Source: Marsupella aquatica (taxonomy: Eukaryota; Plantae; Marchantiophyta). Taken from it: a stretch of 64,000 nucleotides of DNA. Both the position numbers and the translations under genes were made by a program. Below are positions 582 to 64,000 of this stretch, piece by piece (position 1 is the stretch's first letter; every line of letters begins with the position of its first letter). The DNA is taken from the NCBI GenBank assembly GCA_973895155.1, contig OZ316897.1, forward strand, positions 5,841,327 through 5,905,326, given 5' to 3'. The notes beneath the pieces were generated by a model. That model saw only the letters and a list, made by a program, of their open reading frames with translations, was not told where the DNA came from and did no database searches.

Positions 582-3161
582 CTACTTTTTACCCCAATCT
601 TCTATTACCTCGGCTAGGTACAGCCATGGCCTACCAATCAATAGCCAGAATGACGTAGGATTTACCGGCTTCATTACTACATAGTTAATGCTAAAGAAGA
701 TACCTCCTATCTCTGTCTTGATGCCGGTTAACACTCCCGTCGGAATGACCTGATATCCATTGGCCATGTTCAACACTCTTCCAGTCATCTCCGGTGTTAG
801 ACCCCACCCTTTTGCTGTTGAATCAATCATAATACATACCCCTGATCCTCCATCGATGGGTACCCGTAGTAATAATTCTCCTTGAATCATTAATGGTAAT
901 GCTGGGGCTCCTTGATCTTCTTCTATCATTAGTACGTCGGATCTGGTTGCTACCTTGGGTAATCTCGGCTTGCCGAGAATAGCCTTCCTTAATTGCTTCC
1001 GGAAGTACGGGCTATTTTTCAATAGTTGACCTACTATTGCCGAGACTCTAGATTCTAGTACATCTTTAGCCAGGTCATAGGGAACAATCGGCTTCTCTTC
1101 TGGTGGTGTTTCCGTCTTGGATTCGGCCAGTTTTGCCACGCTAGTCTCCACAGCTGTTGGGTCTTCCGAAGCAAACAATGCTTTTGCTCGTTTTACATCC
1201 TTGGCAATGGCTTCGGTATTCTCCAGGGTTTCTAATTCTCTTAGTTGTTCCTTAACACTAGCCGTAACAGAGGGGTAGAACAACTTAGGATGATCTCGAT
1301 TGAAGTCGCTATCTTGTGAAGGATTGGTTTCACTGGTGGGCTCATGGCTCACCTGTATTGCCGGAGCCCTCCCTTCTCCTTCTGTTGATGTTGACGAAGA
1401 GTCGATCCTTTCCTCCGTAACCTTCCCTTTATTTTTGGCCAGCCCATCCCACCTTTCCTTCCTTCTGGTAGATCGAGTAGAGACCCGGTAGCAATCATGA
1501 TCTAAATCCTCCTCTGAGAAGGTTGATAGGGCTTCGGCCTCATCATCAGATGGTACGAACTCTGCCTCGGCATCCTCTTGCCATCCTAGTTCGATGTGGT
1601 TGATTTGAACTCCTCCGGGGGTAGTACCTGGCGGTAAGATCTTGATCGGCAAAAGCTTATGATTTGCGGCCAGGCCTGCCAACCAAGTAGGACATTGCCC
1701 TAGCATATGACCTTCCTGTCGGCATCCCATACATAGCTGAGCTGGTTGTCCATCACCCTGTTTGCGTGCATTTGGGCATTCTCTAGCAAAATGGCCAGGT
1801 TGACCACAATTATAGCACGCCGCAAATCTTTGCACATTTGGCCTAGGAGGTACTGACGGGTTCTGAATAATCCGAGGATACATCTCTCCTGGATTGTTCC
1901 TTAACCCTGACCACAGAGATGCAGGTCTGTTGGATAGGTCTCGTGCTCCAGTCTCACTGATGCCGAAAACACTATCAGCGGCATCTCCCAAAAAGTACTC
2001 TACTTCTCCCTGACATGGTCTGATCTCGGCCACATGCCGAACATGATTAGTATTAAGCTTAGGACACGCATCTTTATGGTGTCCGGTTTTATAACATAAG
2101 GCACACCATACAGAGCTATCCTCGTGTACTACCTTCTTCTTTGGTTTTACCTCTGCAATGATAGCCTTAAGTTGCTCGGTAAGGGCTACGATGTTATCTG
2201 GTGGCTTAGCCTCCATCTTGACTTTCGTCTTCCCTCTCCTTCTGCCCTTCCTTTTCCTAGTTTTTTCTTCTTCAGAACTAGAAGATGACTCACTCTTGCT
2301 ACTTCCACTATCCGAGCTTGACTTATCACTTCTAGACTTCTTGGAATGTTTCTTCTTCTTATCTTTTTTCTTATGGGGTGATCCCTCCTCTGATGAGGAA
2401 CTCTCAGACTTAAGCTGTTTCTTCCGGCTTGTGATATCTGCATTAATGTATAATTGAATATCCTTAATTGCTTCGGCTAAAGTCTCCGGGTTCTCCTTCC
2501 TAATTGCAAAACTCATCTTCTGTGGCAAAGCATTCACCAACCATTGAAGTTGCATACCTTCAGATGCATTGTTCTTTGTACGTCTTACCAGTTTCTGAAA
2601 GCGTTGCAAGAACTTCCTGAAGGATTTGTTCTCTTTGAACCGAAGTTGTCCCAACTTCAGCACTGCTAGTTCTGAAGTTCCAATGGGTCGAAACTCCTTA
2701 ACAAAGAGTGTTTTGAAGATATCCCAGATGGCTTGATCTTCCACATCTAATGCTCTGTACCAAGGCCTAGCCTCACCCTTGAACAGGCCGGGAAGAATCT
2801 GCATCTTGATGGCCGATTCTCCATTTGCTGCAGCGGTTCCCTCGAAATCATCCAACCATTCGTCCGGATCCTCATCTCCTCTCCCATGAAATGCCTTGTA
2901 ATGTATGCGCGACCGCTGGCTCAATCTGGTCCCTGGCCTCTCGTCTGGCCGTGCCTCTGGTTCCCCCATGTCGGTTGGAGACTCACTTCTCCTTACCGAC
3001 TCTTCTTCTGGTATGTCTTCTTCGACGCCACTTCCAGTTTTGGAGCTACCAGCTCTTTTTGCCCCTCTCAGTCGCTGTGTATCATGCCACCCGGCGAGCT
3101 GCTGCAGTCGAGCTCTCTCCCGTTGAATCACTCTTTCTTCCCTCGGCGTAAGGTCAGTCAT
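582..3161 (-). pseudogene. gag-pol: Gag-protease portion of family A polyprotein
   Basis: Retrotransposon gag (FHGRGDEDPDEWL…EARPWY), CX2CX4HX4C knuckles (CALCYKTGHHKDAC, CYNCGQPGHFAREC, CMGCRQEGHMLGQC), protease IDGGSG…LLIGRPWL. The TAG at 582 is premature: the frame continues FTFGTPSITVSW, matching ELRIGEPTVRVSW in family B. Confidence 0.9.
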
Positions 3162-3208
3162 TACCTACGCTTCCGTTCTAACTTCATATCTCACGGCTTA
3201 AGAAATGC

Positions 3209-3226
3209 CCCCTCCATCTAGCGCCA
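3209..3226 (-). promoter_or_regulatory. Primer-binding site, tRNA-Asn type
   Basis: TGGCGCTAGATGGAGGGG, 4 nt from the LTR end. Complementary, with one mismatch, to the plant tRNA-Asn 3' end as I recall it (CCCCTCCTTCTAGCGCCA). Confidence 0.85.
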
Positions 3227-3230
3227 AAAA

Positions 3231-6194
3231 TGTGGTGCGTCCCATGGCTCCCTAAACCCAAGAAACCCCCCAGCTCAAGCCGATTCCCGCAGGTTTCGTG
3301 CTTGGCGAGGCCGTTTCCGCGGCTTAGCGGCATGGGACGCTGCTAACCTTCTACTACTACTATTAACATTTTACACACATATACTGGACAGATCCTTCAT
3401 CGGGTCATGAGATACGTAGCCGGCCTAATATAGGCCTTCCCCTGTCTTCCCCTGTCTTCTTGTTAGGTATGTTTGGATTCCGCCGCCGGAATGATCCCCA
3501 ATAGGCTTGGTTAAGCCGCTAAGACCTCTCTCAGCTCGACACATCCAACTCTCACTCCCCTGCTTACTTTCCTTCCTTCTGTTGATGTGGGCACTCTTCA
3601 CACAAGTTAATGCGACACACAAATAGCAAAATGACTCATTCTGACTGAGTCATACCATGCACTTGCCATACAAACAGTACATCTCATACACAAGTTCTGC
3701 GAACTAAGCCGTGAGGCCAACTCTATTCAGCTCTTAGGCATGAGGAAACATGAATATACACAAGGGTCACTGTATGACTAACCGAGAGCTTCTCGTACTA
3801 CTTGATCCCAGCCCGGCTGGTGCAAACTAAAAACTTGCTAAAGAAGAGGCCCTGAGCTCCCCGCTGCCCAGGTACTTATCCTGGTAGTGGATCCGCCATT
3901 CTTTGCATCGTAAGCCTAATCTACTTAACAGTAATCTACTTGCCCGAATCTACCTATGTACAGCAAGGCAGGAGCACAAGTGTTGCTCCTACCAGTGGGA
4001 CCGCAATCCCACTAAGCTAAGTGTCAGGGCCGCTCCTGGTTCTGATCCTAATCCTAAACGTGGAGATCCGCGCCCGCCCTGCCCACTCACGCCTCCTCCC
4101 TCCACGTCCACCCTCCCTAAAAGGAACGGCGCCCTTGCACCGTCACGACACCGGTGGTGGATCCTCAATGGACGCCCCCAACACTTCCTCCTCAGCCACT
4201 GCCGTTGGCCCGCCTACTGACAGATTACCTGCCCTTGACCGAGTCAACTCTCCATCGGCCTGACTGGGTCCACCTTCGGCTTCAGCCTCGACACCGGCCT
4301 CGGCAATACCCACGGCTTCGGCCTCAGCCACTCCCACGGCTTCGGCCTCCCCTTCCCCTAGGGTAGTTGGATCCCTAGCCGTGACCCTGTCTAGGGTCGG
4401 TGCTGGGTCTACCTCCTTGATCACCACGGCCTGTGAAGTCGTATTACTCCTTGACCCTGAAGGTTTCCGCTTCTTCTTCGTTGGTGGCTCGGCAGCTGGT
4501 CCCTTCCCCTTCCCACTTACTTCCGGCACTGGTGCAGGTGGCACGGCTTGTCCTTTGGCAAATACCACCCCTGGTAACTGGTTTTTCCCAACGGGAGATG
4601 GACCTGCTGCAGCTAAGCATTTAAATACTGCGGCTTGTTTCTTCAGCCGCTCTGTTTGGTTGTCGGCCCGCCGCTGTAGGTTCTCCATCTTCCTCGTGAT
4701 TTCCTCCAACTCCTCTTGGGTTTCATCCAGGTCCTTACGTGCCCCCTCCAGCTCGTTTTTGGCCTCCTCCTGCTCCCTGTGGGCTTCCTCCAATTCCTTC
4801 TTCAAGGTAGCCCTCTCCTCCTGGGTTGCTCTTAGCTCCTTGTCGAGCTCTGCAATGATGACAGACTCCATCTGGTTCATCTTGGCGTAAGTCTGTTCGA
4901 GCATCTCGTCCTTCTCCCTTAGGTCGGCCTTGAAGCTAGCCGTCAGGGACGCAAGCTCCTGCTGCAGCGCCATAATCCCTTGATAGGATTTCCCTAACTC
5001 GGCCTCCTTCTGCTCAAGGGCTCCGCGGATTTTCTCGAGCTCCCCCTTCAACGCCCATTCCTTTCTTTGGGTCTCCGCCATGGCCCGGCTGTTGGCTGTT
5101 ATGTGGGCCTCCTCTGTATTCTTCAGCTCTTGCTTCCACTTCTCCCTCTCTTTGATCGTGTCGGCCAACTCTTCCTGCGTCTGAGTCAGTTTATCCTTGA
5201 TATTCTGATTATCAGCCTGCGCGGTGTCCAACTGCCCCTGCATGATGTTCAGCTCATGTCGTTTAATCCGCAGTTCATCTTGGGCTTTCTTGGCCGCCCT
5301 TAGATCTTCAATCTCGGCTTCCATCCTCCTAAGCCGCCGAATGACCTCGTCCTTCTTGCTTCTCTCTAAAGCCACCGCTTCTTCTGCTCAGCTGGCTTCT
5401 TTGGTGCCGCCGACCTCGTTCTTTTTGCCGGGGTGGCTTCATCGTTGACGGCTCCCTTCCTCTTCATCTCTGCTGCCGTGGAGGTTTCTCCTAGCACCGT
5501 TGCCTGGGTCCACCTTTCCGTGCTACCCTTTAATTCCTAGTGTATGTCGTTGCAGTTCTTGATGGCCTCTCGGATGCCGACGACGCTGTCTTTGCAGAAC
5601 AGAAGATCGTCGAGTTGATTGGAAGTAGGCGTCCACAGGAACTCGTCCTTGATGAGTTCGCCTCCTAAGAAAGCCGTCTTCTGCAGCTCCCACAATCGAG
5701 CGAGCTCCTGCCGTTCTCGAGCTGCCCTTTCTGACTCCTCGTCCTCGTAAGTCTTGATGTACTCAGTTGCCCGTTCGAACAGGCATCCCCAGAAATGTGC
5801 CGCTTGATTGACGTTGCTCATACCCTCCTTAGGTCGATCGTCGGTATCTACTCTCTCCCCGAGTGCTTGCCTAAGCAGCTGACAGTAGTTGGCCTCCCGT
5901 AGTCGTCTGCCTAGTTCGTGCTCGCAAATGAGCCACCATCTCCTGCAAGCGCTCCTTACCCCTCTCCTCTGCCGGTCCTTCTTCCCGTTGATCCTTCCTA
6001 GCCGCCGACGCTTAACGCGCCCTAACCCTAATCGGGTTTTCACCCTCAGCCTTACCTCCGGCCTCTGCCCGGGTTCCATGGTTGCCCCTAATTGTTTATA
6101 TTTTCCTTGTTTTGTCCCTATACTAAGGTGTTCCTAGGGTGCCTTCCTGCTTTACCCACTTAACCGGCCGAGTGATTCCTGTCTAGGCATCACA
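3231..6194 (-). repeat. 5' LTR of family A (~2.96 kb), contains ORFs
   Basis: Termini form an inverted repeat with 7/8 identity (TGTGATGC…GCACCACA). One end abuts the PBS, the other abuts the interrupted pol of family B. Confidence 0.8.
4143..6079 (-). pseudogene. LTR-encoded accessory ORF(s) of family A: 180 aa (5537-6079) plus 410 aa coiled-coil (4143-5375)
   Basis: Two consecutive same-strand ORFs in different frames, separated by ~160 nt of coding-like sequence. Long heptad E/K/Q/L-rich region followed by PPTKKKRK (NLS-like). Confidence 0.65.
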
Positions 6195-9100
6195 ACGTGG
6201 AACAACTCCTCATCCGGAAAAATATCATCAATTGGCTGATCGACTGGTACGCCGTCCAGTCGTGAAAAGAAATCGGCATTGAGGTGTACCCTTCCTGGCC
6301 GAACCCGAACTTCGTAATTAAATTCCTGGAGAAGTAGCACCCACCGGGCTATCCGTCCTGTCACATCCGCTTTGTTGACCATGTACTTCAGGCTATCATG
6401 ATCCGTGTGGAAAATGACCTTGTAGCCTAGCAGATAGTGTCGGAACTTTTTACACGAGTAGATTATTCCCAAAGCTTCTCAATCAGTGGGGGAATAATTC
6501 TTTTCGGCTGCAAATAGTTGACGGCTAGCGAAATAGATGGGGTGATCACGTCCATCCTCATCTAGCTGACTAAGTACGGATCCGATACAGAACCCTGACA
6601 CATCGACATACACGTGGAACTCCTTATTCCAGTCTGGGGTGACCATGATAGGCGCGGTGGTGAGTCGTTTACGGAGTTCCTCAAAAGCAATCCGTCTTCG
6701 GGGTGTCTCCTCGACCGCTGCGTCCTTCTTCATCATCTCAGTTAAGGGCAACGCAATTTTAGCAAAGTCTTTAATGAACCGGCGGTAATACCCTACGCAG
6801 CCCAAGAAGGATCGTACTGCTTTTTGATCCAAGGGGAACACCACCGCCATCCAGGCCGCAACTTTCTCTTGGTCCACCTCAATGCCCCGTTTGGACACAC
6901 GATGCACGAGTAACACCCCCTCCTCTACCCCGAAGAAGCATTTGGCGGGATGTAGTTTGAGGTTAACATCTCGGCATCGTTGCAACGTTCGTCGTAGGTG
7001 TTCGGGGTGCATGGCAACGGTTCCGAAGATGGCAAAGTCATCGATAAATATCTCCAAAAATTCCCGTAGGAAATCGTGGAAGATATTCATCATAAGGCGC
7101 TGAAACATAGCCGGGGCGTTACACAGACCAAAAGGCATCCTCCGAAATGCGAACGTTCCCCACTCCGTAGTGAAAGTTGTTTTGAGCTGATCCGCGAGAC
7201 GAATCCAGATTTGGTTATAACCTGAATACCCGTCAAGAAATGTATAGATTTCATTTCGGGCCACCATATCTAGAACCATATCCGTGAATGGTAATGGGTA
7301 ATGGTCTTTTTGGGTTGCGTCATTCAGCTTACGGTAGTCCTGACAGATACGAATCTTAGGTTTTCCATCCGTACCTCCCTTCTTTGGTACAATGACAATG
7401 GGAGAGACCCAGTCGCTGGCCATTACCGGGTAAATGATATCGGCGGCGAGGAGACGATCAATTTCCTCCTTCACTAAGATGGAGTACCTCGGATTCATGC
7501 GACGTTGTCGCTGTCGTACCGCATGGGCTCCTAGGTTCAGATCGATTGTGTGTTCTCCCAACTAGGGGGAGACGCCTGTTAAATCATGATGACTCCATGC
7601 AAACACATCTTCATATTCCTTGAGCAAAGCTTGGATGGCTTTTTCAGCCTTCCCCGTCAAAGCGTGGCCCAGGTTAAAAGATTTGTCCATCCCAATAGTG
7701 TACTTCCGGTAGTGCTCCTTCCTGATGACTTCAACCTGGTTTCGCAGACTCGGGTCCAGGCTCGCGTCAAGCTCAGCTAACCGAACCCCTCCGTACATGG
7801 GTGGGACCGGGATTGGTCTCGGGATGGGGTTTACTTCCTCCAATTGCGGAATGGACGGATCCCATGAGACTCGCTTTTTATGTCTCGGTCTCGAGTTTTC
7901 GGCCTCAGGCGGTTGTTGGGCTGGTTCATGGTTACAAGGCTCTGAAATGGAAGGAGTAGCCTTGGCTCCCTGCTTGGCTGGAGCCGTGTCCTCCATCTCG
8001 ACGAGTTGTTCGTGCGTTTCCTCATCCCCGACAGTAGATGTACTTGGGGTGGACTCAATGGCAGCCCTCGGGTAATTTAGGAGATGTGTTTCTCGGGTTG
8101 CTTCAACTCCGAAGACATCTTCCTCGGATAGGGACGAGATGAGTTCGATCATATTGAGTTCCTCTTCCTCCGAGGTCTCCGAATCATATTCCTCGGGTCC
8201 TTGTGGGGTTTCTCCCTGATAATCGTCCATTGCCCAGGATACCCGTACGGTGGGTTCCCCGATCCGTAGCTCCTTCTTTCCCCAATCCGTGACTACATGG
8301 CCACCGTACAGCCACGGCCTGCCCAGAAGAACCGGATAAGAGGAGGGACGAACCGGCCTCATGACTAAGAAGTTGAGATAGAACTCTACCCCTCCCACCA
8401 GAGTGAGCACTCGTGTGAGCGTGCCTAATGGGAGGACCCTTGCCCCGTTTGCTAATCTGATAGCTCGGGCCCTGGGTTGATACGTGAGGTATCCTAACTT
8501 GACTGACGTTTCTTCAGTCATGATGTTGACTCCCGCTCCTCCGTCTACAAGAACCATCTTGATGGTACAGTTATTAATTTCGATCGAGATGTCCGGCGCT
8601 CCAAGGTCCTCGCATATCATGTTGCAGTCCGCACTCCCAACTCGGGGTAGTCTTCTCCTTTGGCGACCCATGAGCAACTCCCTCAGTTGTCGTCTGTACT
8701 GTGGGTTGTTCTGCAGCAGTTGCCCCACCGTCGCTGTAACCGGGCAACTCTTCACGTCCTCCTTAATATCATAGTCCTCCTTTGTTTCTTTCGTTGGCTG
8801 CTGCTTGGCTTCCTCTTGTTTATCTTGCTTTTCTTGCTCCTGACGTCGGGCTGTCTCGGCTGCTTTGATGTCCTTATCGATTGCCTTCTGGTATTCCCGA
8901 GCTTCGTAAGCCTCCAGCTATTTCTTTACCAATTCTTCGATGCGGGGGAAAAACAGCTTCGGGTCGTCCCGTCGGTAGTCATCGTCCTTTTCCGGGGGTA
9001 TATTTATCGCTGGCTGCACCGGAGTAGTATCTTGCTTTTTCCTCCATTTCTCCTCCGTCTTTTCTTCCTTCCGTTCGGCCCTTGTCGACACTCGGTAGCA

Positions 9101-10828
9101 CTCGGCCTCATCCAATGGATTAGGGTGTTCCGCCACGTCCACCAGATTCACCCACTCGGTGTTGTCATCTTGCCATTCTACAGCAATCATTTGGACGACT
9201 GCATCGCTCGTGACTGGTCCAGCCTGGGCCGGTCTAGCCGCACTCGTTCGAGCAGCGATTACCAACGGACAGTTGGCCGTGGAATGAGCCTCCGTTTTGC
9301 AAACTTGACATAGTGGGGTGCCTCGGCCATCTCCCTGACGTCTTGGTTCGGTGCATTCCCTCGCAAAGTGTCCTGGCTTTTCACAGTTGTAACAAACCGG
9401 GGACTGCCAAATCCCTGGCTTAGGAGGGATGCTCGGGTTACTGATAACCTGGAAACTCCGGCCATTACTTGGGTAGGGGTACGCAGTTCTACTCGCTAAA
9501 TTACGCGGACCAACCGTTGAAATCTGGTACACGGAATCAGGAGGGTCCTCAAAGAAATACTCCGTGGACTCCGATTCGGGGCCCGGGTTGTCAACATCAT
9601 CCAGCTCTACTTGGTGAACTCGGTTCTTCCACCTTGGGCATTCCTGCACCACATGGCCGGATTGGAAGCACTTTGAACACCACGCATGGGCTCGAATCTC
9701 AGATGGCTTCTTCTTCTCCACCGGCTTCTCCGCAAGATGTATTGACAGTGCTTTGAGTCGATCCGTGATTTCGTTCAGCTTGTCTGCTTCGGCAGCCTTT
9801 GGATCTGGTATCGTTCTTCGCGCCCGGGGTTTAATCTTCCCCTCCTTCTTCACTCGTCTCTTCTTCTTTTTGCTCCGGCTTTCGCTCTCCAAGTCACTTC
9901 CTGATGAACTGGAGGTAGAGGATCCGATGCTTGAAGCTGAATCCGAACTGGATTCCGTCTCGGAGCTGGACGAGGTCGAACGATGTTTCTTCTTCTTCTT
10001 CCGTTTCTTCTTCCTCTCGTCGTCCGATTCGGAGTCACTGTCACTGAAGGTTTCGTACTTACCCTTCCTGCGGCGTGCTCGCTAGCTCCGCCGGGAGTTA
10101 TAGGTGGACTCCCGGTAAGTTTCGGCGCACGCTATGGCCGCCTGCATTGAAATTGGATTATTCTGGCGTACCCAGAATTGCATATTCATGGGCAAACCAT
10201 GAAGGAACCATGTAAGCTGGAGCGCGTCTCCTGGCCTGGGCCGGATCTTGGCCGCAAGTTTCTGAAACTTCTAAATGAACTTCCGCAGGGACTCTTTTTT
10301 TCCCATGCGAAGCTGGCCAATCTTTAATAGAGAACGCTGTTCTGATCCAATGGCATGAAACTCCTGCAGCAATGCAGCTTGGAATTGTGCCCAGGTAGTC
10401 CCGGGTGGTAACGAGTTGTACCATGGACGAGCTTCTCCCCGCATTACTCCCGGGAGGACGGTTAGCTTAATGGCGTCTTCCCCATTAGCTTTAGCAGTGG
10501 CTTCAAACTCATCCAACCATTCATCCGGATCATCCCCATGACGCCCTTTGAAAGGTCGATAATGAAATCGCGATCGTTGCGATATTTGTGGAGGCGCCTG
10601 AGCAGCGCGGGCCACCGGTGGAGCGGCTGCCATAGGTGGTGGTGGTGGTGGTGGTGGAACCGCAGCAGGGCCGGTCGAACCGGACCCCAAAGATCCCGAG
10701 GGTATGTTCATACGTCGAGACGATTGCGAGTCCTCCGAGCCCGATGAGTCGGAGCTTGTTGTGGTTGCACTTTCTCGTTCGCTGGTCAATCTCCTCAAGT
10801 AAGCTGCTTGAGAATGAGTGACGGGCAT
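6195..10828 (-). pseudogene. gag-pol: gag-pol polyprotein of family B with five in-frame stops
   Basis: ORFs starting at 10828, 9892, 8755, 7561 and 6472 are all in one frame. Motifs: 3 CCHC knuckles, protease LVDGGAG, RT (LDGYSGYNQ, MPFGLCNAP, FIDD), RNase H (VDVSGFCIGSVLSQ, TDHDSL, NADFFSR). Confidence 0.93.
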
Positions 10829-10921
10829 TTACTCATATAAATGCAATGGTTAGTACTACGTCCTGATGTATCCTGCCTAGGTGAATACGCACATGTCTCC
10901 CCTCTACGATATGTAGAGTGC

Positions 10922-10939
10922 CCCCTCCATCTAGCGCCA
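10922..10939 (-). promoter_or_regulatory. Primer-binding site, tRNA-Asn type
   Basis: TGGCGCTAGATGGAGGGG, identical to the family A PBS, ~95 nt upstream of the gag ATG. Confidence 0.85.
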
Positions 10940-11852
10940 AAACAAAGGCTATGTCACATCGTAGGCTTCGGCCTTAACTCAGACTTCAGCTTAGACGGGC
11001 ACATCCCTCGTAAATCTGAGGGTTCGGGCAGGAAGGGAAGCACGTAATGCACCTTATTCTCGTAAACTAGCGCTAAGTGCGCATACTGCTAAATACGGAC
11101 ACCTCCTAGGTATGGTTTGTGTTCCACCGCCGGAACGTACCTTAGTCGATAGCAGGATCGACCCCGGCTTAAGGGCTTCTAAGCCTTCGTGCTGTCCGCC
11201 TTCGATCCGGATTCGATGATACAGGTCCTCAACCCGTGCTCGCAACCACTTACCCGCAGGCTGCACCCTGTGCACGTCTCGGGTAGTGCGTTCGGCCCGG
11301 CGCTGCCACCCATATACGAGAAACCCACACACATATGCGCACACATGCATACAATCTCGATTTACACGAAGGAAAAATGATGGGAAAGGATTTTACTACA
11401 AAGGGAACATATGCGTACACTTAGTTGACACGACAGCCCTGGAATGCACAGGTTCAAGGCCAAGGGTGCACACTACAACGGAGCCCGGCTCTGCACTCGC
11501 CCGGTGAGCTTAGTCCTACCCCCTCCCCTTGGTACTCTGTCATTCCCAGAGGTCGGGACTCCCCGCATGTCCCGCGGATGTCCGACTCTGAAACTAAAAA
11601 CCCCCCCCCTTGCCTCTACCGAGGGGTGCACTAAATACTAAGAGCCGAGGAACGGGGCGTCCTCCCGCCGAAGATCCGCTGACCAAGGTCCTAACTAAGC
11701 TGACAGTCAGGCCGGAAAATGGCTGTGTCTTATTAGAAGATCCTAATCTACGCAGGCTGGACAGCAGGGCAGCGCTGCTGTACCTAAGGCAGGTGCCTGT
11801 CCCAAGAGCCTGACTAAGCCAATCCTAATCCTAATCTATTCCTACTCCGCCG

Positions 11853-14501
11853 CTAATGCCTGGCACGCTTGCCAGAGCCGCCCGAATGGGAACGGCCATC
11901 CCGCTGCCTTCGAAGCCTGTCATTGTCCGCTTTGAGGAGCTGGACCTGGTCCAGCAGAGATTCGTTCTCTCGCCTCGCCGCGTCCGTCTCCTCTGCTGCC
12001 TCCTGACATGCCTCCTCCAGCTGCTGGGCGTCACTCGTCAGTTTACTCGCCAGCTGGTCCTGCTTCTCGGCCTCGGTTTGGAGCCGCGCCATCTCAGCCT
12101 GCAGCGTGGCTATCTCCGTCGCGTCCCGCTGGGCTCGCTCCTGGGCCTCCTCCAGGTCTTTCTGCCAGGTGACAGCTTGTTTCTTCAAACTGTCAATCTG
12201 GTTCCGGAGTCGTGTAATCTCGGCCTCGTTCCCAGCTTTGGCCTGTTCGGCTAGGGCGGTAAGAGCGTACGCCTTTGCTAACAACTCATCAGCGGCTGCA
12301 ACCTTGGGTCGTAGTTGCAGAAGCTCAGCCTCTTGAGCCGCCACTTCGTTCTTTAGGTACACGGACTCCACCCGGTACCGCTCTATCCTCTGAAGGGCCT
12401 CCGACTGGGCCCGACCTGCCTTTACGGCGGCAACCAACTCCTGATTGAAGAAACAGGCTACCTTCCGGGCCATGAACTCCCCGGTATCCCGGGCAATTTG
12501 ATGAGAGAAATCTCCCAGAAGCCCGTTCAGAAACGTACCCTGTACGAAGAGTTCCGGGTGGTCCAAGTTGTGCCTGTCCGGATTTGGGCACGGGCAGACA
12601 TCAACACGCGCAGGGGCCGGGGCAGTGACGTCCAGCCCTGGGGACATAACGTTGGAAGGGGCTGGAGTGTCCTCCTGCAGCGATGTCCGGTTCTCCGGAA
12701 TTGCCACCGGCGGGTCCTTGGGAGACCCGGGTTCGGGTAAGACCTCTGTCGTACCAACTTCTGTACTTAGCCCGGCTAGTTGGGTCGCATCAACGGTTGC
12801 AACGACCAACCCCTTCGGCGCCTCCTCGGTTACGATTACAGCTATTTGTGGAGGTGGGGTGGGTGAAGCTGGCGTGTCCACTGGACTTCGGGCCTCGGGT
12901 TGGGGCCGTCTCTCCAATGCCGGAAAAACCCACCTAGCTGGGACCAGCTTTGTAACGTTGATGTGGGGAAGGGTTCGTCGATCAAACCGGGCGTACCACT
13001 CAAGAATGATTTCGATGTGGCTAGCGAAATACGCTTTCCCGCCAATGTACAGCGTCTTCCTTCGCCGCTCCATCTCTTCATGGAATTTCTTAGCGAAGTA
13101 CGACGCCCATTTCCTAGGTCGATAGTTCTCGACCTGGATGACCTGGGCGGCGGAGATCTCCCCCCGGGGTTCCATCATGTGGAGAGCGTACCTCTGGAAC
13201 TCCAGCCGCTCAGCTATCTCGGGCATGAGGCAGGTCCTCATCACGAACCCGTTGTCCACTGATCCCTCTGAGGGAAAACTTGAAGATTGGTACTTGGCCC
13301 CCTTGCCCCCGGGAGCCCGTGATTCGACTCGATGGTCACCTTCGGGTAACCCGAAGATCATCTTGAGCCGTTCTTCTGTGAGGGACATATTCCTTCCCCG
13401 CAGCCGAGTCTGTTGACGTACGTCGTCATAATTCTTGACGAATTCTGTCATGTCCTCCCCGTAGTACCTGCAAGTGTTCCAGGGGAGAGAGGCGAGGTGC
13501 TCAAATCCCTGAGTCTTCAGGTACACCGCATGCTTGGGATGGAGGATGTTGCTGTGAACGTTTTCCCCCATGCGATGCATCGTTACCTTGGCTACGGCTA
13601 CCGTGGCCAACGGTAACCCGGATGCACTGGCGGATTCCTTCCTCTTCTTTCCCCGTGACTGACTCGGGGAAGGTGATACTTCCCCATCCTCCCGATCGGG
13701 CCTGGGGAGTGCCACTGCGGTTGGTAACGGGCCCGGGGCGGCCATGGTCACCATGTTGTCTGCTGGGGCCGCTCCTGGGGTCAGAGCAGGGGGTGGGGAC
13801 GATATAGTGTCGGCCCCCCGAGCGCTTGTTCCTCTGGGCCGCCTGGTCAAGGGTGGGGTAGCCTCGTCGTCATCGCTAAGATCCACAGCGTTGATGACGG
13901 AGCGTACCTGTGCTGGCTGGGTGATAGGTGGTGGGGTTTGGCTAGGCCGCGGCTGAGGCTGAAGCTGAAGCTGAGGTTGCATGGGCACGGGCACGGGTAC
14001 GGGTACGGGTACGGGTCCGGCTGAGTTGGTCATGTTGGTTGATGGCCGAGTTCCCATGAAGCTCTGTAGGTGCTGGTAGAAGTTCTCCGAAGCAAGTGCG
14101 GATGCCCTTGTCGAACGGTTGGTACTGGACTCGCCGTTAATGATAGCCCGAACCTGGGCAGGGATGTGGTCGAAGTGATGTCGCTGTAGGTCGATTGTAC
14201 CCGGGATATTGAAGACCTCGTCCGGAAGCCGAAGCAATGCTTCCCAGAACCCGATATATTTGTCTCCGTTGAAGAAGTACCCAGATACCTCAGCTGGTCG
14301 GTAAAGCTCGCTCTGAGACGGGTAGTCAAAGTTAAGGACGTAGTGGTGTCGTCCTGCTAGGCGGATGGCTCTCTCGTATTCGCGTTCGATCTCGTATCGG
14401 CGCGGGTTGGCGTGTTTCAATGAATCGGCCAAGTGCCTTCCGGTAGATAGGAACTGCGTCCAGAATCGAATGGCCGAGCTGGAGAGGATCGTGTGCGACA
14501 T
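11853..14501 (-). CDS. Intact 882-aa LTR-encoded protein (globular N-terminus, Pro-rich linker, central PMD/Athila-accessory-like domain, C-terminal coiled coil)
   Basis: Uninterrupted 2.65-kb ORF with ATG and an upstream TATA. The homologue at 60792-63422 differs mostly at synonymous sites. Motif EFVKNYD…LRGRNMSLTEERLKMIFGLPEG; NLS-like RGKKRK. Confidence 0.85.
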   Translation of the reverse strand: MSHTILSSSAIRFWTQFLSTGRHLADSLKHANPRRYEIEREYERAIRLAGRHHYVLNFDYPSQSELYRPAEVSGYFFNGDKYIGFWEALLRLPDEVFNIPGTIDLQRHHFDHIPAQVRAIINGESSTNRSTRASALASENFYQHLQSFMGTRPSTNMTNSAGPVPVPVPVPVPMQPQLQLQPQPRPSQTPPPITQPAQVRSVINAVDLSDDDEATPPLTRRPRGTSARGADTISSPPPALTPGAAPADNMVTMAAPGPLPTAVALPRPDREDGEVSPSPSQSRGKKRKESASASGLPLATVAVAKVTMHRMGENVHSNILHPKHAVYLKTQGFEHLASLPWNTCRYYGEDMTEFVKNYDDVRQQTRLRGRNMSLTEERLKMIFGLPEGDHRVESRAPGGKGAKYQSSSFPSEGSVDNGFVMRTCLMPEIAERLEFQRYALHMMEPRGEISAAQVIQVENYRPRKWASYFAKKFHEEMERRRKTLYIGGKAYFASHIEIILEWYARFDRRTLPHINVTKLVPARWVFPALERRPQPEARSPVDTPASPTPPPQIAVIVTEEAPKGLVVATVDATQLAGLSTEVGTTEVLPEPGSPKDPPVAIPENRTSLQEDTPAPSNVMSPGLDVTAPAPARVDVCPCPNPDRHNLDHPELFVQGTFLNGLLGDFSHQIARDTGEFMARKVACFFNQELVAAVKAGRAQSEALQRIERYRVESVYLKNEVAAQEAELLQLRPKVAAADELLAKAYALTALAEQAKAGNEAEITRLRNQIDSLKKQAVTWQKDLEEAQERAQRDATEIATLQAEMARLQTEAEKQDQLASKLTSDAQQLEEACQEAAEETDAARRENESLLDQVQLLKADNDRLRRQRDGRSHSGGSGKRARH

Positions 14502-14602
14502 TCAGAGGAGATAGTAGTGGCGACCTAGAGAGAATGAGAGAGCTGGGGTCGAAGCTGGCGCGCGGACTGATGGACTGGTGCACTACAAAGGGTTGGCTCC
14601 CC

Positions 14603-14609
14603 TTTTATA
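14603..14609 (-). promoter_or_regulatory. TATA box of family B LTR
   Basis: GTATAAAAGGGG ~100 nt upstream of the ORF ATG, conserved in copy 2 (60686 TATAAAAAGGGG). Confidence 0.7.
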
Positions 14610-15847
14610 CTTTGAGGGCTTGTCGATCCCCGACGTCTCCTCGATGCCCATAGGTTGAACCGCTCACGCTTGTGGTGTACCGGCCACTCCGCCGGTTTGA
14701 GTCAGCGTGCGTCAGTGGCCGCTTCCTTAAGTTTGTTATACGGACCCGAGGGAGGGGCCCCTCCACGCTCGTAACCCGGGTGTGCGAATAGCGACCCGCC
14801 GCCAGCCCGAACCTGAAGTCCCCCTTATTGCCTAATGATGTCCTACCCCTATTGATTACCTAAATACTGTCGTTATGCTAATAATAGCGGCCTAAGACCC
14901 ACCTAATGCGCGTGCCGAGCGCAGTTAGACTGAATCACTCATTAACCGCCGTACCGGCGGCGTCACAGTACTGCTTTTCAATTCTTGTCTCTGTTCAATG
15001 TTGTCCTTATGGAATGCGCTCTCAGTCTTTGAATGGTTGCATTCGATCCTCTGTTTTGTTCGTGCCTTTCCTCCTCTCTCGATCGTTTTATGCCCCCTTC
15101 CTCTATAATTTTCATTATCTACTATCCTTATCAGAATTTGTTTCGTTTCTTCTCAGATTTAAAGGTCGTTTCCAGAGGGGTTTCTTCACCTTCAATCCTT
15201 ATTGTTTCTCGCCTCAATCCTTAATACTTTCGATTCTCTTTGTCAGCGCCTTACCAATGTTCACTGCCAGTGCTTTCTCTCACACCGACTCTTTCTCGAT
15301 TCTTGCTTAATCATTTTCTCTCGCTCTCTCTCGTGCCTCCTTAAGTGATCTTCAATGTCCTTATGAGATCGGTCCGTCATGGTTCGGCATAGGTAGTCCA
15401 TGGCTTCCGCAATGACATTTGGAGGAATCACAAACGTCCTTGTTAAACCTAAAATTAGAAATGTGATCGAGAAGTTCTCATCCATAGCTTCTTGGGAGGG
15501 GCAGTTATGTCAAATCTATAAACACTCAATGAAAATCTGGCCTTTCTCTCAAAGAAAAAATTGCTCGTGGAGAGCTACGTGCTGATAACGTGTTGTGGGA
15601 GAAATGAGACAAAGAGTTGGTTCCATCTTTACTCTTGGTAGAATATGTACATGTGGCTATGGCCTAAGTAGTTAGGGTAGTTACATAGGTAGTTATCCCA
15701 AAGGTAGACTTAACTCAAGTATGAGTTACAACAGTATGTAGGTTTTCTTTGTTGTTAGTCATTGTCTTGTATTTTTGGACTGAGACAATCTCAGTCCAAA
15801 GTTCAAATTTGGTTTTCTTCTAAGAGTTGTATTTGTTGCACTTGCAG

Positions 15848-16485
15848 AATCGAGACCTTGTCCCATCAAGCGGAAGTTGTTGATTTTGGATCTTAACAAA
15901 ATACTTTGGGATTCTCTTGAATTCCAAAGCAAGGGCAAATCTAGAAACATTGTGACCCCAAATGGAGTGCATTGGGATAGATCAAATGGAACTAGTCGCA
16001 TGTATACAGAGAGGCCAGGGCTCCATGAGTTTCTAAAGTTGGTTTTTGACCGGTTTGACGTTGCAATTTGGACATGTGCTGGGATGCCGCGGACAGTGAA
16101 AATGTTGAACATGATGTTCACTGTTGAGGAGCGGTTGAAACTGAAGTTTGTATTCACACAGGTGGAAGCCTTTGACACAGTCATTCAAAGGCGTGACATT
16201 ACAAATGGAAAGGCAAATGTGCTATTGAAGGATTTTCGGGTGGTATGGAGTGCATTTGGAAATCTATATGATGAAACCAACACACTCCTTGTGGATGACT
16301 CCCCCTTGAAGGCCTTTGCCAACCCAGACATGACCGGACTATTTCCAGTGCCCTACACGCATGCCAATCGTGGAGACAATTTTCTTCTAACAATTCTTTG
16401 GCCATGTCTTGAGAAACTGTCACATGCAAGTGATATTCGTTGTTATCTTCTCCTAAACTCTCCAAAGTGGTCTCTATTGCACATT
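15848..16485 (+). pseudogene. FCP1/NIF-family HAD phosphatase-like ORF, 5' part
   Basis: KLLILDLNKIL, ERPGLHEFLKLVFDRFDVAIWT, LLKDFRVVW, YDETNTLLVDDSPLKAFANP. Preceded by an acceptor-like ttgcag. Confidence 0.8.
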
Positions 16486-16753
16486 TCTGGGAAAATAATT
16501 TTTATAATAAAAGGGTGAGACCGCGAAAACCCCACGGCCGGGGGAAAGCAAGCAGCCCCCTAGATATATCAGCACAACTCCCACAGGGAGGCCAGCAGGC
16601 AAAAGCAAAGGCCGGAGTCACAATAAACAACAAAAAGGGGAGACTGAAGCAATGGGCCCAGAACGTGAGTGACCCACACATCATGTCAACTTGTAGAGTT
16701 CTAGAGCCAATGAGCGAGGTAACCCATTCACCCTTTTCCAATAGCTATCACTC

Positions 16754-30750: not shown

Positions 30751-31480
30751 CTCTAATTAGATATAACGAATGAGTAACTTCCTCCTTGTTTCTGGTTTCT
30801 TGGCCCTCATCAATGTGCTTGAGGGCTGTTGTTCCTTAGGGGCCCCTGTTGTAGGGTTTTCTTGTTCTTCCGTTGTCTTGGCCCTTTTGCTTTTGCTCGG
30901 GTCCCTGCCCTGTCCGGGCTCTTTGTTTGCCTGTTGGCCCCCACTTCCCGTGGGTTTTTGCGGGTTTTTTTGGAAAAATAAAATAAATAAATAATAAAAA
31001 ATGACAATTAAGTAAAAAGCTTGTGTCTGGTTTCTCTCCAACCCAAACAAGTTATATTCACACTTGTTAATGAGGTGCCTTAGAGATGTCGTTTCTAATA
31101 GATATCCATTTCTCTATAATTTCAATTCTACTTGATGTCCACAAAAAAATCCCTTGCTGCCCCCATTTTGACCTTTGTGTCATTTCTTGATCCCTTTTTG
31201 TTGCTCAATTTTGTCCTTTGCCCCCATTCTCCCTTGTTGCGTGATAGCATCCTTGCCCTTCGTGACCATTCCCCCTAATTTACCCAATGGTATTGTTTAA
31301 AGTGATAGCATCATTGCAATTGGCAACCTAACAGGAACAAAGCATTGGGTTTAGGGCCCTGGGAGAGAATTGAAAGCCCAATTGCTCTTAACTCAAATCT
31401 AGATGATGACTGAACATGAAAGAAGGAAGTATTCGGAAAGTAGAGTTGATGGGGAGGAAACTTGGCAGAGAGTTCAAGAG

Positions 31481-31825
31481 TGTTAGGATTTACTCTTAGG
31501 TCTAGAGTTACGAATGTACCGTAGTTAAGACTAACCTTAGTCGTAGACTTGGTTAGGTTAGTCATGTTGTGCACACTCTATAACCAAGCGGTGTTTGCTT
31601 GGAGAGGTGGAACTCAGACTCATTGTTACGGAGCCAGTTGAGAGATAGGGAGAGCTTGTGCTGTGGATGCTTGGTATGGCCGGTCGGCCTAGAGTGCAGT
31701 AAAGCTCTTGTGTGTTCCCGTGGACGTAGCCTCATGTGGAGGTGAACCACGTATCTCTCTGTGTCGACTATTGTGCTTTGGATGGTTCATGGGCTTGCCG
31801 TTGCGATCGTCGTCTATGCTCAACA
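31481..31825 (+). repeat. Copia 5' LTR
   Basis: Direct repeat of 39544-39888, with about 5 transitions by manual comparison. Confidence 0.95.
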
Positions 31826-31827
31826 AT

Positions 31828-31839
31828 TGGTATCAGAGC
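31828..31839 (+). promoter_or_regulatory. PBS, tRNA-iMet
   Basis: TGGTATCAGAGC 2 nt after the LTR. Confidence 0.95.
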
Positions 31840-39530: not shown

Positions 39531-39543
39531 TCAAGGGGGAGAT
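39531..39543 (+). promoter_or_regulatory. Copia polypurine tract
   Basis: TCAAGGGGGAGAT immediately before the 3' LTR. Confidence 0.9.
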
Positions 39544-60318: not shown

Positions 60319-63300
60319 TGTGACGCTGCCGGTACGGTGGGTAATGAGTGATTTGGCCTAACAATGCTTAGCACGTGCATTAGGGGTATCTTAGGCCATA
60401 ATTACTAGCATAACGATAGTATTTAGGTAGCCATTATGAGTAGGAAATCATTAGTCAATAAGGGGCGTTCGTGTTTGGGCTGGCGGCGGGTCGCCATTCG
60501 CACGCCCGGGTTGCGAGCATGTAATGGGCCCTCACCTTTCCCCCTCGGGTCCGTATAACAAACTTTGGGAGGCGGCCACTGACACGAGCAGACCCGGACT
60601 GGCGGAGTGGCCGGTACACTGCAAGCGTGAAAGGCTCGGCCTATAAGCGACAAGGAGGCGTCGGGCGATCGATGAGCTTTCAGGGTATAAAAAGGGGGCC
60701 GATCCGTTGTAGTGCACCAGTTCTTCAGTCCACGAGCCAGCTTCGACCCCAATTCTCTCGCTTATCCTTAGTCGCCTTCTATCTCCTCTGAATGTCGCAC
60801 ACACTCCTTTCCAGTTCGGCCATACAATTCTGGACGCAGTTCCTGTCTATCGGAGGGCACTTGGCCGACTCATTGAAACACGCCAACCCGCATCGATACA
60901 AAATCGAACGCGAATACGAGAGAGCCATCCGCCTGCAGGCCGCCACCACTATCTCCTTAACTTTGATTACCCGTCCCAGAGCAAGCTTTACCAAACCCGA
61001 AGAGATATCAGGGTACTTCTTCGATGGAGGCAAATATATCGGCTTCTGGGAGGCACTGCTTTGGCTTCCGGACGAGGTCTTCAATATCCCGGGCATGATT
61101 GAGTTACAATGGCACCACTTTGACCACATCCCCGCTCAGGTCCGGGACATCATCAACAGCGAGTCCAGCACTACCCAGTCTACAAGGGCGTCTACACTTG
61201 CTTCAGAAAACCTCTACTGGCACCTACAGAATTTCATGGCAACCGTACCATCGACCACCGGTGCCAGCCCAGCCGTGCCCGCACCAGCACCAGCTCAGGC
61301 TCAGGCTCAGGCTCAGCCTAGCCAAACCCTGCCACCAGTCACCCCGCCCATACAGGTGAGATCCATCGTCAACGCCGTAGATCTCAGCGATGACGAAGAG
61401 GCTACGTTACCCCTGTTCAGGCGACCCAGAGGAGCGAGCACTCAGGGAGTTGGGACTACATCGCCCCCTCCCAGGCCCAGACTCGAGTAGCAACTCCAGC
61501 GGATAACACGGTGACCGTAGCCGCCCCGGCCCCAATACTAACGGCGATAGCACTACCTACCCGATCAAGAAGATGGGGAGGTGTCACCCTTCCCGAGCCA
61601 GTCTCGAGGAAAGAAGAGGAAGGAACCCGTAGCCGTATCCGAGTTACCCATGGCCACGGTAGCCGCAGCCAAGGTGACAATGCACCGCATGGGGGAGAAC
61701 GTGCATAAGAACATCCTCCACCCCAAACATGCAGTGTACTTGAAGACTCAGGGGTTCGAGCACCTCGCCTCTCTACCCTGGAACACCTGCAGGTACTACG
61801 GGGAGGACATGACGGAGTTCGTCAAGAATTATGACGATGTCTGTCAGCATACTCGGGTGCGGGGGAGGAATATGTCCATCATAGAAGAGCGGCTCAGGAT
61901 GATCTTCGGGCTACCCAAGGGTGATCACCGGGTTGAATCACTGGCTCCCGGAGCCAAAGGAGCCAAGTACCAATCCTCGAGTTTTCCCTCCGAGGGGTCA
62001 ATGGACAACGGGTTCGTGATGAGGACCTGCCTCATCCCCAAAATAGCCAAGCGGCTGGAGTTCCAGAGGTACGCCCTCCACATGATGGAACCCCGGGGTG
62101 AGATCTCCGCTGCCCAGGTTATCCAGGTCGAGAACTATCGACCTAGGAAGTGGGCGTCGTACTTTGCTAAGAAGTTCCATGAAGAGATGGAGCGGTGAAG
62201 GAAGGCGCTATACATCGGCGGGAAGACATATTTCATGAGCCACATCGAGATCATTCTTGAGTGGTACACCCGGTTTGATCGACGAACCTTTCCTTGGGTC
62301 AACGTAACTAAGTTGGTCCCAGCTAGGTGGGTCTTCTTGGCCCTGGACAGACGGCCTCAACCCAAGGCCCAAAGTCTGGCGGCCACGCAAGCCTCACCCA
62401 CCCCACCTCCACAAGTAGCCGTAGCTGTAGCCGTGGCCAAAGTGGTACTAGACGAGGCAGTAATCGCGACCTTAGACACAATCAACCAGGCTGGGCCGAG
62501 AGCAGAAGTCAAAGCGGTAGAAGACTTGGCTGGGCCCAAGGGTCCAGAAGACCCACTGGTGGCTATTCCGGAGGACAGGACGATGATGGAGGAAGACACT
62601 CCAGCCCCTTCCAACCCTACATCCCCGGGGCTGAATGTCACTACCCCGGCCCCCGCACGAGTTAACGTCTGCCCGTGCCCAAATCCGGACAGGCACAAAC
62701 TGGACCACCCAAAACTCTTCGTACCGGGTACATTTATGAACAGGCTTTTGGGAGATTTCTCCCAACAGATTGCCCGGGATACCGGGGAGTTCATGGCTCG
62801 GAAGGTAGCCTACTTCTTCAATCAGGAGTTGGTTACCGCAATAAAGGCAGGTTGGGCCGAGTCGGAGGCCTCTCAGAGGATAGAGCGGTACCGGGTTGAG
62901 TCCGTGTACCTAAAGGATGAAGTTGCGGCTCAAGAGGCTGAGCTTTTGCAACTACAACCCAAGGTTGCAGCCGTCGATGAGTTGTTAGCAAATGCGCACG
63001 CCCTTATTGCCCTAGCCGAACAGACCAAAGCTGGGAAGGAGGCCAAGATTGCACGGCTCCGGACCCAGGTTGACAGTTTGAAGAACCAAACTGTCATCTG
63101 GCAGAAAGACCTGGAGGAGGCCGAAGAGCGGGCCCAACATGACACTGCGGAGATAGCCACCCTGCAGGCCGAGGTAGCGCGGCTTCAAACCAAAGCCGAG
63201 AAGTAGAGCCAGATGGTGGACAAGCTGACGAGCAACGCCCAGCAGCTAGAAGAGGCATGCCAGGAGGCAGTTGAGGAGACGGACGTGGTGAAGCGAGAGA

Positions 63301-64000
63301 ACGAATCTCTGCTAGACCAAGTCCAACTCCTCAAGACGGACAACGACAGACTTCATAGGCAACGGGATGGTCGCTCCCACTCGGACGGCTCTGGCATTAG
63401 CGGAGGGTTAGGCTTAGAATAGAACTAGGAGTAGCTAAAACATGCTGTTAGGACAAGCGCCGGCCAGAAGATAGCGGCGCTGACACATTAGCTAGCCTGT
63501 GTAGAATAGGTTAGACTAATAGGACAAGCCATAATCAGCTTAGCAAGGATATAAGTTAGCGTAGATTTGGGCACGAGGCCAGGCTGGTCCTCAGCCCTTA
63601 GTATTTAGCAGCCCCCCGATAGAGGCAAGGGGGGGGGATTTTAGACTCAGAAGTTGGCCATTCGCGGTACGTGTGGGGAGTCCCGGACTCGGTGAAGTAC
63701 CGGAGTGCCAAGGGGAGGGTATATGACTAAGCTTGTTGGGCAAGTGCGGAGCCGAGCTTGGTTGTAGTGTATACTCCTCGGCCTTGGGCCCGTTCTTTCA
63801 CGAGGTGTCGGGTCAACCAATCGTAAGTGTATGATCATAAATGAATGAAATCCTTTTCCCTCAATTGCTTCGTGTAAATCGAGATTTATGTTTATGTGTA
63901 AATGCATGTATGAGTCTCGTGTGCAAGTATCAATGTCAGGCCGAACACGTTATGCCAAGCATGCACGGGGTGCAGGTTACGGATACGGGGTTGCGAGCCG
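60319..64000 (+). mobile_element. Second copy of family B giant LTR (runs off window end)
   Basis: Begins TGTGACGCTGCCGGTACGG, like 14967 on the - strand. Colinear homology through TATA, ORF and 3' region. Confidence 0.9.
60792..63422 (+). pseudogene. Disrupted copy of the 882-aa LTR-encoded protein
   Basis: ORFs 60792-61490, 61581-62198, 62235-63206 and 63213-63422 align with the 882-aa protein, with frameshifts and CGA>TGA / CAG>TAG stops. Confidence 0.9.

Follow-up and report, generated by a model that had tools for sequence, protein, structure and literature searches.

Can an LTR of a plant Ty3/Gypsy retrotransposon carry a complete gene and, if so, what would its product do for the element? 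The question is raised by a 4-kb unit lying directly before the PBS of a liverwort element, within the window (the whole stretch of 64,000 nt analysed here). A sequence-only reading had proposed that the unit is such an LTR, and the features that it listed (ORF, TG terminus, TATA box, GT-rich tract, CA terminus, PBS and gag) were all recovered where it had placed them. The features of this family, hereafter family A, are the following:

10952..14967, minus strand: family A unit, TG...CA, 4,016 nt, likely 5' LTR, with the outer end set by diverse flanks and empty sites
14604..14609, minus strand: TATA box, the sole TATA[AT]A that unit A has on this strand, retained in copy C
11853..14501, minus strand: intact ORF of 882 aa, with no break in frame
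14097..14501, minus strand: N-terminal helical domain, aa 1-135, kept in liverwort homologs
12954..13619, minus strand: central domain, aa 295-516, with a predicted VANC21/PMD-like DNA-binding fold (structural model)
11856..12341, minus strand: C-terminal coiled coil, aa 721-882, with sub-threshold coiled-coil Pfam matches only
11320..11400, minus strand: hexamer resembling a poly(A) signal (11397), then U-/GU-rich tracts (sequence motifs)
10921..10939, minus strand: PBS, 12 nt past the CA at 10952
6195..10828, minus strand: gag-PR-RT-RH in a single frame, with 5 stops, interrupted ahead of the integrase by element B
60319..64000, plus strand: second copy (C) of unit A, at 79% identity, in a LINE RT, cut by the window end

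The outer end of the unit is marked by public contigs, which exit it at 14967 in all four runs (23, 24, 14, and 6 contigs). The loose letters beyond this position agree at just 0.39-0.49, indicating unlike flanks, the summed depth in X1 drops from 90,876 to 1,239 across 12 nt, and contigs representing empty-site alleles were present in X1, X3, and X4. Copy C, whose 3,759 collinear nt are 79% identical to unit A, begins at the same base and breaks a LINE RT frame, as had been pointed out in the sequence-only reading; its gene is disrupted by stops and frameshifts. On inspection of the sequence, unit A runs from a TG at 14967 to a CA at 10952 and has a terminal inverted repeat with 5 of 6 bases complementary. 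The spacer between CA and PBS measures 12 nt, so that the 3' end of the unit is placed only to about 12 nt, and a similar spacer (19 nt) was found in the relative L001. Behind the PBS (10939 on) follows the ATG of gag, at 10828. The PBS is presumably of the tRNA-Asn type in this family and in family B described below; no tRNA genes were found in the 64,000-nt window.

Within A's pol a second element is nested, which had gone unmentioned in the first reading and comprises:

3231..6194, minus strand: family B unit, TG...CA, 2,964 nt, likely the 5' LTR of B, nested in A's pol
4143..5821, minus strand: LTR gene of family B, N-domain plus coiled coil, with a stop and a frameshift here
3208..3226, minus strand: PBS of family B, 4 nt past the CA
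582..3161, minus strand: gag-protease ORF of family B, 859 aa, the element continuing beyond the window

Judged from its sequence, family B is a divergent second family with the same layout and PBS and a weakly related gene. Indeed, 21 nt of the PBS are identical between both families, they share a tail motif (score 34, reached by none of 100 nulls), and the N-domain of B matched that of A at E 0.009, the sole match outside family A above threshold among 1,270 segments; the B gene is without the central domain. The B unit has a terminal inverted repeat with 6 of 7 bases complementary and one canonical TATA, at 6100. Its start coincides exactly with the cut point in A's pol, and six X2 contigs, among the joints listed, continue past 6195 elsewhere. 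Among the 15 of 178 joints listed, at least one X1 contig joins the CA end of B (3231) to a place other than a PBS, as would be expected of a 3' or solo LTR end.

In the public contigs, depth steps were found at both ends of unit A, and the depth of the gene resembles that of the LTR tail, unlike that of gag-pol. The median summed depth of the gene was 6.1 (X1), 4.9 (X2), and 5.5 (X3) times that of gag-pol, ratios that do not equal copy number and from which X5 was excluded owing to its thin, spiky cover. No head-to-tail repeat was found within unit A (score 22 against a null mean of 20) or within unit B (19 against 21), and short LTRs concealed at the unit's ends were rejected. A tandem element upstream of A was also considered and rejected, the X1 flank depth being about 1,000 against 30,000-70,000 for gag-pol. 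Neither the window, in which no copy has both of its ends, nor the public contigs, whose loose letters at 14967 are too mixed to reveal a polypurine tract, yielded a 3' copy, a polypurine-tract junction or a pair of TSDs. Scans for the long locus gave none in viral contigs or prokaryote genomes and one 4-kb contig in metagenomes, and the accession spacing of the Calypogeia homologs revealed no clear LTR pair. The LTR status is therefore inferred, and the depth profile, the repeat-free unit and the like layout of family B support it well: the 4-kb unit is very probably an LTR, and the whole of it, because reverse transcription copies the stretch from outer end to PBS entire to both ends. With the same high probability, each element would carry two copies of the gene and each solo LTR one. 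These findings also run against the two arrangements that the sequence-only reading had opposed to its own proposal, a short repeated end with the gene in the internal region and an independent element beside a PBS.

The element behind this unit shows the Ty3/Gypsy order, with GAG, PR, RT, and RH in the window and INT past RH in the relative P0067 (74% identical). Neither aRH nor a chromodomain appears in the Pfam list of full-length P0067 or in the window, and no aRH, the domain used to recognise Tat elements (TatI-III, Ogre, Retand), was found in P0067 or between PR, RT, and RH of A. In a quick tree of RT comprising 91 rows (90 of 123 hits being long enough) and no labelled reference clades, A grouped with Calypogeia RTs (SH-aLRT 81, and 97 for a clade of 8 rows), apart from angiosperm hits. 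The RT thus appears to group with liverwort elements of Athila-like or "Tat-zero" type, and element A may be described as an Athila-like Ty3/Gypsy element whose exact clade depends on REXdb references. Its gag-pol frame of 1,544 codons is interrupted by 5 stops and the LTR gene by none, an excess that is not significant (rough Poisson ~0.06).

Comparison of the family A gene with copy C gave a dN/dS of 0.258 across 860 codons, with values of 0.135 for aa 1-130 and 0.128 for the central domain, which indicates that the 882-aa ORF is under purifying selection. The protein consists of the N-domain, a proline-rich linker bearing a basic patch (aa 285), the central domain, a further linker, and the coiled coil. 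Homologs occur as unnamed proteins in one liverwort proteome; when searched by shared words, the 882-aa protein had no match at E 0.001, and no frame longer than 115 aa was present in the 1,550 nt before the CA of L001. No relatives carrying the gene in the internal region were found, which leaves the move of the gene into the LTR, as proposed in the sequence-only reading, no more than a possibility. A search for fusion proteins of 1,587-4,530 aa, which gives weak evidence, found none. For the modelled N-domain (pLDDT 75), generic helical bundles were the only matches (best Z 5.7). An env-like protein was rejected, as the product is without a transmembrane segment (peak hydropathy 1.13 over 19 residues, below membrane-spanning strength) and the gene precedes the PBS instead of following pol.

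Units A, B, and C each have one canonical TATA, located upstream of the gene, and because of this position the gene probably lies in a giant R region, not in U3 as MMTV sag does. RNA would start behind the TATA at 14609 and end mostly at ~11350, yielding a 3.2-kb mRNA whose 3' end likely corresponds to the motifs at 11320..11400, while read-through would yield genomic RNA with an R of ~3.2 kb; this transcription scheme as a whole is given somewhat better than even chances. Less probable, though it deserves weighing, is a real gene placed in the U3 of the LTR under its own promoter, with genomic RNA arising from a second promoter that lacks a TATA and lies within the final 900 nt, and with a short R, as for MMTV sag. 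Such an arrangement would require neither a strong-stop DNA of 3.6 kb nor a long ORF before gag, and the non-coding tail 3' of the gene (900 nt in A, 912 nt in B) is in keeping with it, but the position of the only canonical TATA in all three units speaks against it, as do the poly(A)-like and GU-rich signals with which the tail opens.

A pointer to the function of the gene came from the model of the central domain (pLDDT 88). VIA-align matched it to VANC21 with Z 8.3, rmsd 4.1, and 205 aligned residues, the next match among 48,161 chains reaching Z 2.5; unmatched models typically peak at Z 7-8, near this value, and the VANC21 match nonetheless stands alone. Foldseek also ranked VANC21 first (probability 0.96, TM 0.52), with an E of 0.039, above 0.001, and 8-9% identity. 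Atlas returned DUF1985, Transposase_32, and ATHILA clusters, among others, at 0.81-0.82, scores that count only as leads below 0.9. Sequence profiles gave no link of the central domain to VANC21 or Transposase_32, none of 46 alignment members exceeded the cut-off for Pfam DUF1985, PMD or Transposase_32 (one reached E 0.059 with Transposase_32), and no match at E 0.001 was found in a viral fold library. The central domain is predicted to have the fold of the VANC/DUF1985/PMD superfamily, and this modelled VANC21/PMD-like fold of an LTR-gene product is new here, the sequence-only reading having proposed no function for the gene.

VANC21 is described as binding a DNA motif and demethylating its own family (PMC5735166), VANC and MAIN/PMD are reported to have a common fold (PMC13547354; 10.1101/2024.09.27.615353), and PMD-C proteins are reported to oppose Polycomb at the loci that they target (10.1101/2024.09.27.615353). 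The LTR gene likely encodes a nuclear DNA-binding protein that would oligomerise via its coiled coil. That this protein would act in trans on LTR promoters, as an anti-silencing factor or activator specific to its family and supplied additionally by solo LTRs, is given a little less than an even chance. The CpG observed/expected ratio was higher in A (0.86-1.02) than in LINEs, the Copia interior and flanks (0.42-0.62), a weak proxy for lost methylation that is confounded by age; no tandem array of VANC-like motifs was found in the LTR, where the commonest 8-mers occur three times in 1,366 nt. Since the family B gene is without the central domain, anti-silencing cannot directly explain that gene, and the retention of only N-domain and coiled coil in B favours a protein that binds DNA or chromatin for some other purpose, such as integration steering, packaging, nuclear import or self-restraint. 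The fold is common to host MAIN/MAIL proteins, whose loss releases silencing, PMD-fold proteins can also promote silencing (PMC5418596), and both families insert into repeats, their own relatives included. This explanation nevertheless appears less probable, as VANC21 is the only structural match with a known transposon role and PMD-C proteins act against Polycomb. We therefore lean, with fair but not strong confidence, towards a selected 882-aa gene in a likely LTR whose protein likely binds the DNA of its family and would counter silencing. Very unlikely is a unit that just happens to lie beside a PBS, be it a non-autonomous element in its own right or a short LTR with an internal or nested gene: the unit is deeper than gag-pol, as an independent repeat would be, its 3' copy was not seen and its 12-nt CA-PBS gap is above the usual, but an identical 21-nt PBS lies just past the end of two unrelated units, the cut in A's pol coincides exactly with the start of B, without any further LTR in between, neither unit has terminal direct repeats, and the spacer of L001 is similar.

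An LTR gene countering silencing would resemble VANC21 of VANDAL21, a Mutator-like DNA transposon of Arabidopsis (PDB 9LNJ, 9LNK), in its predicted central fold and in being transposon-encoded, and VANC21 is described with a predicted coiled coil for self-assembly (PMC13547354); it differs in sequence (8-9% identity), in its location within the likely LTR of a retrotransposon and in the absence of tandem motif arrays. Extra ORFs of the OTA lineage, reported with plant mobile domain in Ogre (57%), Transposase_28 in Retand (23%), and ORF-1 in Athila (16%) (PMC6317226; PMC11963269), likewise are accessory genes of non-chromoviruses with a PMD-superfamily-like domain and a coiled coil. However, they are internal, mostly between pol and the 3' LTR (PMC7264820), whereas the family A gene precedes the PBS and has no Pfam match above cut-off. 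Rice Retrosat2, RIRE3, and RIRE8 are described with ~3-kb LTRs, an extra ORF before gag and numerous solo LTRs (PMC3485330), but belong to another lineage, encode an unrelated protein and, at least in that account, have their ORF0 treated apart from the LTR. MMTV sag and primate lentivirus nef are given as long ORFs within an LTR (PMC2664473); this part of the likeness drawn in the sequence-only reading stands, but sag and nef lie in U3 (the 5' portion of the LTR), upstream of the promoter, in LTRs of at most ~1.3 kb, in contrast with 882 aa downstream of the only canonical TATA of a plant retrotransposon. As in the Athila clade, where the PBS is Asp in 72% and Asn in 12%, gag-pol forms a single frame without aRH and the PBS presumably fits one of these two tRNAs. 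Liverwort "Tat Z2" elements lacking aRH have also been described (PMC13468544). A point of difference is that the RT of family A falls in a bryophyte-type clade separate from angiosperm hits.

In its fullest form, which we put forward as tentative and rather unlikely to hold in every part, the proposal is that a liverwort Athila-like LTR is a complete anti-silencing gene, encoding a DNA-binding protein of VANC/PMD fold in a 3-kb R, and that solo LTRs, otherwise dead ends, would outnumber full elements and provide a trans-acting factor by which the entire family stays unsilenced. Solo-LTR formation is seen as a way in which the host disarms retrotransposons; in the present case an entire gene, promoter included, would survive it. 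There is also a risk for annotation, in that solo copies may be called host genes and the elements would escape LTR finders set to short length limits. To our knowledge, proof of anti-silencing proteins exists solely for DNA transposons (VANC). What PMD-like accessory ORFs do for Gypsy elements has long been asked, a question that the predicted VANC-like fold now makes testable, and the presence of such a fold in a liverwort retrotransposon would date the link between fold and transposon to before flowering plants.

Family A, a Ty3/Gypsy element on the minus strand, opens with a 4,016-nt block (unit A, 10952..14967) in which an unbroken 882-aa gene lies ahead of the primer-binding site (PBS). 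The landmarks named for this block in the sequence-only reading are all present, and so is its second copy (copy C, 60319..64000, plus strand), which starts at 60319, where a LINE RT frame is interrupted, and shows 79% identity to unit A across 3,759 nt. Gag, protease, RT and RNase H of the element share one frame (1,544 codons with 5 stops). The PBS is presumably of the tRNA-Asn type; the window holds no tRNA gene for comparison.

Features of the window (position, strand, description)
14967, minus: TG end of unit A, upstream of the ORF
14609, minus: TATA box, upstream of the 882-aa ORF
14501-11853, minus: 882-aa ORF, unbroken (ORF reading)
10952, minus: CA end of unit A, downstream of the ORF after a 900-nt non-coding tail
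from 10939, minus: PBS of A, 12-nt spacer after CA
10828, minus: start of gag of A, downstream of the PBS
6194 (TG) to 3231 (CA), minus: unit B, 2,964 nt, opening where the pol of A stops
from 5821, minus: gene of unit B, broken by a stop and a frameshift in this copy
4 nt after CA 3231, minus: PBS of B, 21 nt identical to that of A
3161, minus: second gag (B), behind the PBS of B
11145-11110 and about 3500-3465, minus: 29-nt motif, self-complementary over a short stretch
15784-16515, plus: NIF/FCP1-like phosphatase frame (PF03031, E 2e-16) between element A and a LINE; the frame could be either a host gene or a retrocopy
16754-19501, minus: LINE ORF2 fragment, 915 aa, RT and zf-RVT (Pfam)
31477-39889, plus: Copia element, 350-nt LTRs 98% identical (sequence comparison)
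44252-44944, plus: ubiquitin C-terminal hydrolase domain, initial part (Pfam), probably a host gene exon
49504-49659, minus: LTR fragment related to the Copia LTRs (sequence comparison)

Six public sequencing runs, none recorded as RNA, contained the window stretch or part of it, and contigs were mapped at 14870-15040 in 4 of them (at most 4 samples from 3 studies, one possibly the source of the window itself). At position 14967, 23, 24, 14 and 6 contigs of these runs depart into flanks agreeing only 0.39-0.49, and summed depth in run X1 falls from 90,876 to 1,239. Contigs on the flank from 14968 go on with other letters in X1, X3 and X4, and these are empty sites. The outer end proposed at 14967 is thus real. 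The flank is low-copy, which rules out A as the rear member of a tandem arrangement. Summed depth does not give copy number, so only the steps at both unit ends and the failure of the gene to track gag-pol were used: across 2800-15600, median depth relative to gag-pol was 6.1x (X1), 4.9x (X2) and 5.5x (X3) for the gene, and 3.5x, 3.0x and 7.6x, respectively, for the last 850 nt of the unit, with X5 excluded for its thin, spiky cover. No joint skipping the gene was found among the 15 joints listed of 178, and the head and tail of unit A have no common repeat (score 22 vs a null mean of 20). Unit A behaves as a single block. Because LTR replication copies the stretch between outer end and PBS to both element ends, unit A is very probably the 5' LTR. 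Of the claimed 4-kb LTR with an internal gene, the outer end, the PBS and the one-block behavior stand, and a 3' copy was not seen, scans of sequence collections giving no long locus.

The pol of A ends at 6195, directly behind RNase H, where the second family (B) is inserted. Six X2 contigs follow this pol to 6195 and then leave for different sequence (agreement 0.88), the pattern expected of copies lacking the insertion, and in one X1 contig the CA end (3231) abuts a location that is not a PBS. Units A and B show no DNA match in self-BLAST; the 29-nt tail motif, a candidate cis signal, is the only DNA common to them, at a score reached by 0 of 100 nulls. A profile of six N-domains (aa 1-135), built without B, matched the gene of B at E 0.009, and nothing else outside family A cleared the threshold in the 1,270 segments; the gene of B has a coiled coil and lacks the central domain. 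The layout of A is repeated in B. Single contigs also connect ends of units A and B (joints 6194, 3231 and 14964) with positions inside further A and B copies, suggesting that the two families often nest in each other's LTRs. The related element L001, on a 4-kb metagenome contig, has a gag 86% identical to that of P0067, a full-length relative of A at 74% identity. No frame above 115 aa occurs in the 1,550 nt preceding the CA of L001, which counts against a lineage-wide trait. At L001:1544-1585, a 19-nt spacer after CA resembles A's spacer, and the PBS, presumably of the Asp type, is unlike that of A. A short ORF between PBS and gag (L001:1995-2240, plus strand) codes for an Elf1 transcription elongation factor with a zinc ribbon (PF05129, E 4e-28), apparently a host gene captured in the leader.

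The RT-RH region of A shows 69-74% identity with polyproteins from Calypogeia and metagenomes, against 57-60% for Riccia and 41-51% for angiosperm matches, and in a quick RT tree (91 rows; 33 of 123 matches omitted as too short) A clusters with the Calypogeia rows, separate from the angiosperm ones. This grouping, together with the absence of aRH and chromodomain from P0067, fits Athila or Tat Z2, a liverwort group lacking aRH; a liverwort is also the probable host. Codon comparison of the genes of A and C (860 of 882 codons; dS 0.475, dN 0.123, ratio 0.258) indicates that the gene is under selection, with ratios of 0.135 in the N-domain, 0.128 in the central domain (aa 295-516) and 0.31-0.42 elsewhere. 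Copy C has decayed since then: it carries 2 stops, and 5 of its 7 indels shift the frame.

Pfam gave only sub-threshold coiled-coil matches for the 882-aa protein. The protein carries a basic patch at aa 285 but lacks a membrane segment. HMMER, run as a full scan on aa 295-530, retrieved 43 relatives; among the 16 clusters checked, nine were named, all from the liverwort Calypogeia fissa, one was only 'hypothetical' and six were unnamed. Several relatives keep the order N-domain, central domain, coiled coil (the last at aa 721-882 in A). The AlphaFold model of the central domain (46 sequences, pLDDT 88.5) had DNA-bound VANC21 as its top match among 48,161 solved chains (Z 8.3, rmsd 4.1, 205 aligned; runner-up Z 2.5), and Foldseek also ranked VANC21 first (probability 0.96, TM 0.52, E 0.039). 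DUF1985, Transposase_32 and ATHILA clusters among Atlas feature matches (0.81-0.85) are leads only; sequence profiles gave no bridge from the central domain to these families or VANC21. No clear fold match was found for the N-domain. The model makes a VANC-like DNA-binding fold probable for the central domain. VANC combines DNA binding with demethylation (PMC5735166) and is linked by fold to MAIN (PMC13547354; 10.1101/2024.09.27.615353).

Most likely, RNA would start just behind the TATA box at 14609 and end mostly after a poly(A)-like signal at 11397, yielding a 3.2-kb mRNA from any LTR, and read-through from 5' LTRs would give the genomic RNA; a rival scheme places a second promoter in the tail of unit A. 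With start and end as in the read-through scheme, the gene would lie inside R, unlike MMTV sag and nef. The protein would likely bind family DNA through its VANC-like domain and oligomerize through the coiled coil; that it counters silencing is a tentative suggestion, somewhat short of even odds. Because PRC2 represses some bryophyte transposons (10.1101/2022.10.24.513474) and PMD-C proteins act against Polycomb (10.1101/2024.09.27.615353), Polycomb is a candidate target alongside DNA methylation. CpG observed/expected is 0.86-1.02 in family A vs 0.42-0.43 in neighboring LINEs, a weaker depletion confounded by age.

PMC7264820 places the additional ORFs of plant LTR elements in the internal region, in agreement with the sequence-only reading, whereas the gene of A precedes the PBS. 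Other sources describe non-chromovirus LTRs reaching ~5 kb and PMD encoded by 57% of Ogre elements (PMC6317226), as well as Gypsy-encoded PMD-A clades in angiosperms (PMC5418596); the consulted parts of PMC13468544, PMC12885004, PMC9985172, PMC11963269, PMC3485330 and PMC2664473 contain no gene inside a plant LTR. The earlier reading knew of no such plant architecture, and none surfaced in our literature search, to which subscription papers, the per-element tables of PMC6317226 and preprint supplements, outside its scope, may add with regard to novelty. The architecture is real and unusual, and the function of the gene, which is very probably LTR-borne, is open to testing.
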